From Escherichia coli (GTDB lineage Bacteria; Pseudomonadota; Gammaproteobacteria; Enterobacterales; Enterobacteriaceae): a DNA stretch of 4,779 nucleotides. Positions 2,069 to 2,105 of the stretch are shown here, piece after piece. Below the pieces are notes generated by a model. That model did not search any database, was not told where the DNA came from, and saw nothing but the letters and a program-made list of their open reading frames with translations. The DNA is taken from assembly GCF_965641715.1 (NCBI RefSeq), contig NZ_OZ282459.1; one strand, given 5' to 3'. The position numbers and the translations under genes were made by a program. Every line of letters starts with the position of its first letter. Position 1 is the stretch's first letter.

Positions 2069-2105
2069 TTGTCCAACACCGTGCCGCCCGGGAAAAATTT
2101 CCCGC
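2069..2105 (+). promoter_or_regulatory. Putative mob operon promoter with overlapping palindrome (possible operator)
   Basis: -35-like TTGTCC (2069-2074), A-rich -10-like gaaaaat (2092-2098), and the inverted repeat cgggaaa-aa-tttcccg overlapping the -10. Weak inference from sequence only. Confidence 0.3.

Follow-up and report, generated by a model that had tools for sequence, protein, structure and literature searches.

The question raised by this locus is why a perfect palindrome stands between the origin of transfer (oriT) and the first mobilization gene of a plasmid. The window, by which we mean the whole stretch of 4,779 nt of Escherichia coli DNA that was analysed (contig NZ_OZ282459.1), carries CGGGAAA-AA-TTTCCCG at a site which a sequence-only reading had located between bom and mbeC, over an A-rich -10 candidate, and had interpreted as a possible operator for autoregulation by MbeC. 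The location holds, with the palindrome lying between the nick region (1982-1989) and the Shine-Dalgarno (SD) sequence of mobC (2122-2127). The span of 2088-2105 originally given for it was one base too wide on each side, as the C at 2088 and the C at 2105 are non-complementary.

The presence of RNAI, a nick sequence and a mob operon identifies the window as a small ColE1-type mobilizable plasmid. The operon encodes MobC, a relaxase, MbeB and MbeD, and the full set of ColE1-type (MOBP5/HEN) traits was found: the nick CTGG/CTTA, MobC, a relaxase with embedded MbeB and MbeD, and an RNAI/RNAII replicon. A megablast search with 1900-2480 matched 2531 plasmid records, mostly from Klebsiella, Escherichia, Enterobacter and Salmonella, which are typed as MOBP and mobilizable. 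The closest record (L001, NZ_CP157101.1; 9144 bp, 99.8% identity) is about twice as long as the window and has two matches to the query, possibly as a dimer or through duplication in the assembly of a plasmid of ~4.6-4.8 kb. ColE1 (NC_001371) has the same octamer, TAAGCCAG, at 1462-1469, a position that we take to agree with the published ColE1 nic, 5'-CTGG/CTTA-3' on the complementary strand, and the nick in the window would accordingly fall between 1986 and 1985. The nicked strand is the complement of the present orientation (PMC9282650). The transferred strand of the window would hence be the nicked, minus strand, with its 3' end at 1986. The coordinates of the features discussed below are collected in the following table, together with the hairpins of other lineages.

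Features of the oriT-mobC region of the window and hairpins found at the same position in other lineages
Feature	Position	Strand	Description
RNAI	1222-1324	minus	part of the RNAI/RNAII replicon
oriT nick sequence TAAGCCAG	1982-1989	minus	5'-CTGG/CTTA-3'; columns invariant among aligned relatives
Conserved block CTGACGCGCC-TGCGG-CTTGTCC	2053-2074		precedes the hairpin; common to ColE1; final stretch of oriT-side homology
Extended imperfect inverted repeat	2075-2118 (2075-2095 / 2098-2118)	minus	21-nt arms, 17/21 complementary (81%)
Inner perfect palindrome CGGGAAAAATTTCCCG (CGGGAAA-AA-TTTCCCG)	2089-2104		7-nt arms, AA centre; predicted hairpin top
-10 candidate AAAAAT	2093-2098	plus	N18 after TTGTCC 2069-2074; 9.1 bits
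mobC Shine-Dalgarno AGGAGG	2122-2127	plus	3 nt past the hairpin
mobC (mbeC)	2133-2474	plus	probable start CTG 2133 rather than ATG 2154
L113/L160 hairpin			CAGCAT-AA-ATGCTG nested in a perfect 10-bp outer stem; L113 outer AACCCCGAAG/CTTCGGGGTT
L064 hairpin			AGTCCGGG/CCCGAACT nested in AACCCGGC/GCCGGGTT
Hairpins of mob-less plasmids			CGGATT-AA-AATCCG, GCGCA/TGCGC or ACGCAA/TTGCGT; flanked by conserved CCTCACG and CCCGTTCACCG
ColE1-type hairpin			GCTCCCGG...CCGGGAGC; compensatory variants GCACCCGG/CCGGGTGC and AGCCCCCGGA/TCCGGGGGCT
L110 hairpin			17-bp perfect repeat

Several other elements of the plasmid were noted in passing. The cargo consists of a ParA-family ATPase (241-1125, minus) and a DUF2158 protein (4395-4580, minus). 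On the plus strand, GAAGCGG occurs at 1875-1881 in GAGCGAGGAAGCGGAA (within 1860-1900), ~130 nt downstream from the replication origin inferred at ~1745, and presumably fits the pBR322 ssiA/n'-pas lagging-strand site. Judged by the cer consensus, GGTGCGGGCAACGGATGTTATGGTAAAT at 4329-4356 resembles the XerC/XerD core found in multimer resolution sites of the cer type.

The start of mobC probably lies at CTG 2133, 5 nt after AGGAGG, and not at the ATG at 2154 chosen by the ORF finder. Among relatives this start position is occupied by TTG or CTG, or by ATG in L026, L102 and L113; the seven extra codons (ADKRNK-; region 2133-2156) show synonymous third-position changes upstream of ATG 2154; the NikA-like Pfam profile aligns from residue 4 of the long-form protein; and RefSeq/GenBank annotates the longer 342-nt coding sequence in three relatives. 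The likely start codon of mobC is thereby corrected. In two divergent lineages, L015 (697-873) and L064, a small basic ORF (58-79 aa; MQKPKKKPLVV... or MAQSTKKKRSKTKVKRYHP...) was seen between the hairpin/SD and mobC, where it overlaps the mobC start.

The palindrome proved to be the core of a 44-nt imperfect inverted repeat, in which the outer arms, AACACCG (2075-2081) and CGGTGTT (2112-2118), are followed by an internal loop and then by the inner stem. The window has 11 perfect 7+7 palindromes with a spacer of at most 4 nt, where a dinucleotide shuffle is expected to have 1.5, and a single such palindrome is not significant because about that many are expected in each shuffled window. No other repeat of the window is as good as the extended one, and none of 200 dinucleotide shuffles reached 17/21 (shuffle maximum 16). 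It lies 90-133 nt from the nick and starts right after the conserved block at 2053-2074. A search of Rfam gave no match at the hairpin site, and a scan of 1850-2300 for intrinsic terminators found none, the T run after the stem being missing on either strand. Terminator-like palindromes do occur elsewhere, at 1230-1247, followed by TTTTTT at the 3' end of RNAI, and at 4599-4615 (GCCACCTCACAGGTGGC then TTTTATTT; region 4582-4615), beneath a weak, sub-threshold Rfam match to isrD. Further 7+7 palindromes, at 4213-4228, 2368-2381, 3786-3800 and 4517-4531, fall within coding sequence or close to the cer-like region. The outer-arm motif recurs a third time as AACACCGG at 2182-2189, inverted relative to 2111-2118 and direct relative to 2075-2081; as a binding repeat, the AACACCG copy at 2182-2188 was rejected, as it codes for the conserved E-H-R-R of the MobC ribbon-helix-helix (RHH), and it is probably coincidental.

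Relatives were gathered in three ways, from PLSDB, by a genome scan that used the two flanks as its sole anchors, and by a metagenome scan for which nick-proximal oriT sequence was the sole anchor; together these gave 53 distinct versions of the hairpin interval. Across these variants, the GGGAAA/TTTCCC arms and the outer AAC.CCG/CGG.GTT arms were 94-100% conserved, and the 2-3 nt centre was the most variable part (47-60%). Changes in both arms were found in a Dickeya plasmid (L025), which has CAGGAAA-TCA-TTTCCTG, and in a Klebsiella plasmid (L015), which has CGGAAAA-C-TTTTCCG; position 4 of the outer arm was seen as A:T, C:G and G:C, and is mismatched in many variants. In a set of 23 variants, 93.6% of the cells were paired, compared to 37-63% in slid controls, and both-sided changes were present at 3 pairs. 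Single-sided transitions, counted by eye in the first 23 variants for a strand preference, were uninformative (3 vs 2). The view that the palindrome is under selection, as part of a module on the oriT side, is supported by these sequence comparisons.

A wider view was obtained from the metagenome scan with the nick-proximal oriT anchor, which returned 179 matches, 118 of them distinct, whose downstream sequences were grouped. The position directly after GGCTTGTC was filled by unrelated hairpins in about 10 lineages. A mob-less Salmonella lineage (L040 and relatives) has kept the CGGGAAA palindrome with the sequence beyond it replaced, and the bom regions of ColE1 and pBR322 are without this palindrome. 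In ColE1 (L016, NC_001371; 1540-1870 compared with 2068-2130 of the window), rop, on the opposite (minus) strand, and a large hairpin of its own are inserted between oriT and mbeC. In a few lineages (type D), which share the nick region, homology ends earlier, and neither the conserved block nor a hairpin was found. Homology between lineages breaks off sharply at three points, after GGCTTGTC, after CAACGCC and after TTTCCCG, and this clustering suggests a recombination or module boundary. Because unrelated hairpins occupy one position and mob-less plasmids retain theirs, structure is kept here rather than sequence: what is preserved is a hairpin-forming repeat, and not a particular sequence, and it goes together with the oriT side instead of following mobC. 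Conservation of a hairpin with internal loops as structure rather than as sequence is what an ssi-type site calls for.

The same collection contains short contigs (L017, L018, L031, L035, L036 and L039) with near-identical enterobacterial ColE1-type sequence; contigs of this type are labelled Streptomyces, Cutibacterium, Syntrophomonadaceae, Vogesella, Methylococcaceae and Sulfobacillus, and the odd labels most likely go back to contamination of the sample or the assembly. L031 has another repeat (TCGTA..GACTC/GAGTCTACGA) in place of the hairpin interval, and a MobC-like ORF is absent downstream.

The fold of the repeat is strongly strand-biased. As single-stranded DNA, the hairpin of the window reached -17.0 kcal/mol on the minus strand (z -4.7) and -12.4 kcal/mol on the plus strand (z -3.7). 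The minus strand folded better in 53 of 53 family variants (means -17.6 vs -11.2 kcal/mol) and in all 17 lineage representatives, and the ColE1 hairpin likewise gave -21.1 kcal/mol on the nicked strand vs -17.1 kcal/mol on the other. Quantification of G·T pairs in the minimum free energy structures of 14 representatives (about 11 independent hairpin types) revealed 21 on the minus strand vs 2 on the plus strand, and the stems of L064, L158 and L113 are uninterrupted on the minus strand and have A·C or pyrimidine mismatches on the plus strand. Over all 62-nt windows of the plasmid, the energy of the minus strand less that of the plus strand averaged +0.4 (sd 1.6); the difference at the hairpin, -4.6 to -5.0 kcal/mol, is in the extreme 0.4% of these windows, and the asymmetry is still ~3 sd out after regression on GC skew. 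A bias in the opposite direction was seen inside mobC, where the 62-nt window 2206-2267 (-17.1 kcal/mol on the plus strand, -11.7 kcal/mol on the minus strand) is among the strongest plus-biased spots of the plasmid; this could be mRNA structure or merely G-rich coding sequence. Rather than selection, deamination of cytosines on a strand frequently exposed in single-stranded form could explain part of the G·T bias at the hairpin. A site acting as duplex predicts no bias and a plus-strand mRNA hairpin predicts the opposite bias, so the pattern points to a structure of the transferred DNA strand; an RNA of the minus strand is not expected here, since a minus-strand gene or conserved promoter is absent. 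We infer from the bias that the element functions as single-stranded DNA.

The explanation that we tentatively favour, at slightly less than even confidence, is that the element is a hairpin of the transferred strand of the type that serves single-stranded DNA initiation or primosome assembly, a positional analogue of the H-strand site of ColE1 and pBR322. The palindrome would be the tip of the 44-nt imperfect hairpin (2075-2118), acting in single-stranded form on the minus strand. With its place on the transferred strand 5' of the nick, at a distance of 90-133 nt, the hairpin would be among the last DNA to enter the recipient, where a start signal for the complementary strand is of most use. 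There, SSB would coat the incoming strand and the stable hairpin would persist as a single-strand initiation signal recognised by PriA, most likely for primosome assembly of the PriA type; DnaB and DnaG would then be loaded, a primer would be made close to the 3' terminus of the transferred strand, and its extension would copy the whole complementary strand. The closeness of the hairpin to the ribosome-binding site of mobC would reflect tight packing of two modules and not regulation by MobC. Priming as such is what we infer for the hairpin from its structure and position, and the functional analogy is proposed because, in a lineage that is without rop, it occupies what is presumably the position of the ColE1 H-strand site.

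To our knowledge, ColE1/pBR322 itself is the only case in which it is understood how the transferred strand becomes duplex in the recipient. The H-strand site of these plasmids (rriB/pasBH) is placed in the stretch from bom to rop, where the GCTCCCGG...CCGGGAGC hairpin and, on the nicked strand, a TAAGCGG motif are found. Our alignment puts the present hairpin exactly at that ColE1 hairpin, which is presumably the mapped site. Classical primosome assembly sites are ~55-70 nt long and often consist of two hairpins, and those of pBR322 carry an AAGCGG-like motif. The ColE1/pBR322 site (rriB, ssiB, or n'-pas/factor Y effector site) would share with the present hairpin its position after GGCTTGTC, on the mob/rop side of the nick at a distance of ~90 nt, its location on the nicked strand, an internal loop and the greater stability of the fold on that strand. 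The two differ in that there is no sequence similarity between them, in that the present element has 44 nt rather than ~60-70 nt, and in that an AAGCGG-type motif is missing from it. The short length and the missing motif count against a primosome assembly site, as do the type D lineages, which have no hairpin. For the transferred strand of ColE1, priming from a primosome assembly site has been proposed (PMC4595007, after Nomura, Low and Ray 1982), and pBR322-type replicons have a second site, ssiB, farther downstream of ssiA (PMC3167613).

Two further systems bear comparison. The sso of rolling-circle plasmids and of ICEBs1 is likewise strand-specific, structure-dependent, located just upstream of the nick and last to be single-stranded, and sso elements are interchangeable between related replicons (PMC4595007), as the present hairpin appears to be; unlike it, they are usually longer and recruit RNA polymerase, whereas the stem of the present hairpin has no -35/-10 pair. 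Frpo/ssi of the F plasmid is also a hairpin of the T-strand that acts in the recipient (PMC7690428), where we propose that the present one would act. Frpo, however, is a promoter mimic of ~330 nt in the leading region, and the present hairpin has 44 nt at the trailing end.

Among the other explanations, one retains the hairpin of the transferred strand and changes its task. The trailing edge of the ColE1-family oriT would be a "slot" that must hold such a hairpin and has been refilled by recombination with at least 8 unrelated ones, and the job would perhaps not be PriA priming but a function new to mobilizable plasmids, for example protection of the 3' end or a pause in transfer that allows the relaxase to re-join the strand. 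We consider this unlikely.

Equally doubtful is the operator. According to this idea, an RHH dimer of MobC/MbeC would bind the duplex palindrome over the mob promoter, repress the operon and help to build the relaxosome. MobC does combine a PF05713 MobC domain with a NikA-like RHH N-terminal domain (PF21983); the palindrome lies between the nick and mobC, over the best sigma-70-like match of the interval; and conserved arms around a variable centre are also expected of a dimer site. The idea is also reasonable because MobC of RA3 shows that an RHH protein of this kind can repress its own promoter through an imperfect palindrome, there between -35 and -10 (PMC4175270). For ColE1-like oriTs, the pCS36-4CPA paper mentions an inverted repeat and "MobC binding sites" obtained by prediction (PMC5935869).

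Co-variation of the site with the DNA-contacting ribbon of MobC was nevertheless absent. The ribbon KMLTMWVT occurs with hairpins of types A (CGGGAAA), C (ColE1-type; L077 and L096) and E (L110), KMLTLWVT with types A, A' and F, and RFLG[IV]RVT with a variant of A and a variant of C, so that type A by itself is found with three ribbon types. The mob-less plasmids of type B have hairpins with mobC absent within 560 nt, which means that the element is kept or replaced where there is no MobC to bind it. That the same ribbon goes with unrelated hairpins argues against a sequence-specific MobC operator. In addition, ColE1, whose MbeC reportedly binds its oriT (Varsaki 2009), and pBR322 bom do without the palindrome, the -10-like hexamer is not conserved, the centre varies from 1 to 3 nt or more in length, which shifts the phasing of the half-sites, and the strand-biased G·T pattern is unexpected for a duplex site. 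The autoregulatory operator put forward in the sequence-only reading is therefore not supported, in view of one ribbon pairing with three unrelated hairpins, of the hairpins of mob-less plasmids and of the strand bias of the fold. The sites of RHH accessory proteins (the RA3 MobC operator OM, the R388 TrwA sites and R64 NikA repeat A) resemble the present element as imperfect palindromes next to oriT and upstream of an RHH gene that opens the mob operon; they differ from it in that the hairpin here shows neither co-variation with the MobC ribbon nor a conserved promoter overlap, folds with a strand bias and occurs without mobC. A weak or structure-based interaction of MobC with the hairpin may still take place.

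A role in the 5' untranslated region of the mob mRNA is rather unlikely. Transcription would start in or before oriT, and a plus-strand RNA hairpin would stabilise the message or tune translation of mobC. Wherever the hairpin is directly ahead of the first gene in mob-carrying lineages (A, A', F and L015), it stands 2-5 nt before the SD, whatever its sequence, and this tight abutment would also fit a role in mob expression. Among the relatives, there is no conserved promoter between the hairpin and the SD, as such a leader would have it; a conserved upstream promoter, which the leader would need, is absent as well. The fold of the plus strand is the weaker one in every lineage, its A·C and pyrimidine·pyrimidine mismatches are poorly tolerated by RNA, the mob-less plasmids have a hairpin here at ~100 nt from any gene, and in L077 and L110 the gap between hairpin and SD widens to ~35-45 nt.

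Another duplex or cruciform role at the module boundary, as a site for a host factor or MobB or as a recombination hot spot, appears improbable. The breakpoints between lineages do cluster exactly here, at the three points given above, but compensatory substitutions or a consistent strand bias are not expected of a recombination scar, and a candidate protein is missing.

Quite improbable, too, is the palindrome as a promoter element only, with the A-rich centre serving as the -10 of mob and the symmetry being incidental. The overlap of the palindrome centre with an A-rich -10 candidate was correctly recognised in the earlier reading: TTGTCC-N18-AAAAAT is sigma-70-like and, by a simple matrix of our own, the best plus-strand match between ori and mobC (1700-2140). 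A stricter sigma-70 scan of 1850-2300 found no promoter, however, and the score in this register falls from 9.1 bits here to 2.8-5.0 bits in the commonest relatives, which speaks against AAAAAT as the -10 of mob. The hexamer is peculiar to this variant and is not conserved, because the centre (GGC, GCC or AGA in common relatives) is the most variable part. The -35-like TTGTCC (2069-2074) falls inside the conserved block 2053-2074, and TTGTC is equally conserved in ColE1, where rop, not mob, comes next; the compensatory changes would also be left unexplained. A candidate antisense promoter on the minus strand inside mobC (TTGTTG/TAACCT, 6.3 bits) was rejected, as the SD flank, read in complement, supplies its -10, which is missing in relatives. 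Finally, a chance palindrome without function is scarcely credible: although one 7+7 palindrome is no surprise in a shuffled window, the extended repeat was not matched by any shuffle, the arms are near-invariant in the 53 variants while the centre drifts, and compensatory changes occur.

Earlier work has depicted inverted repeats of ColE1-like oriTs (PMC5935869), and the H-strand site of ColE1 has been known since the 1980s. What the present comparison of sequences adds is the filling of the hairpin position by many unrelated sequences, the consistent bias towards the transferred strand and the negative result on co-variation with MobC. A palindrome upstream of an RHH gene is not automatically its operator. 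In Enterobacterales, resistance and colicin genes are very commonly carried on small ColE1-type plasmids. If the transferred-strand reading is true, the much commoner lineage without rop would have a signal equivalent to that of ColE1, a cis element that lies outside the ~85-90 bp oriT annotations, and this would also account for the retention of a hairpin in mob-less "hitch-hiker" plasmids.
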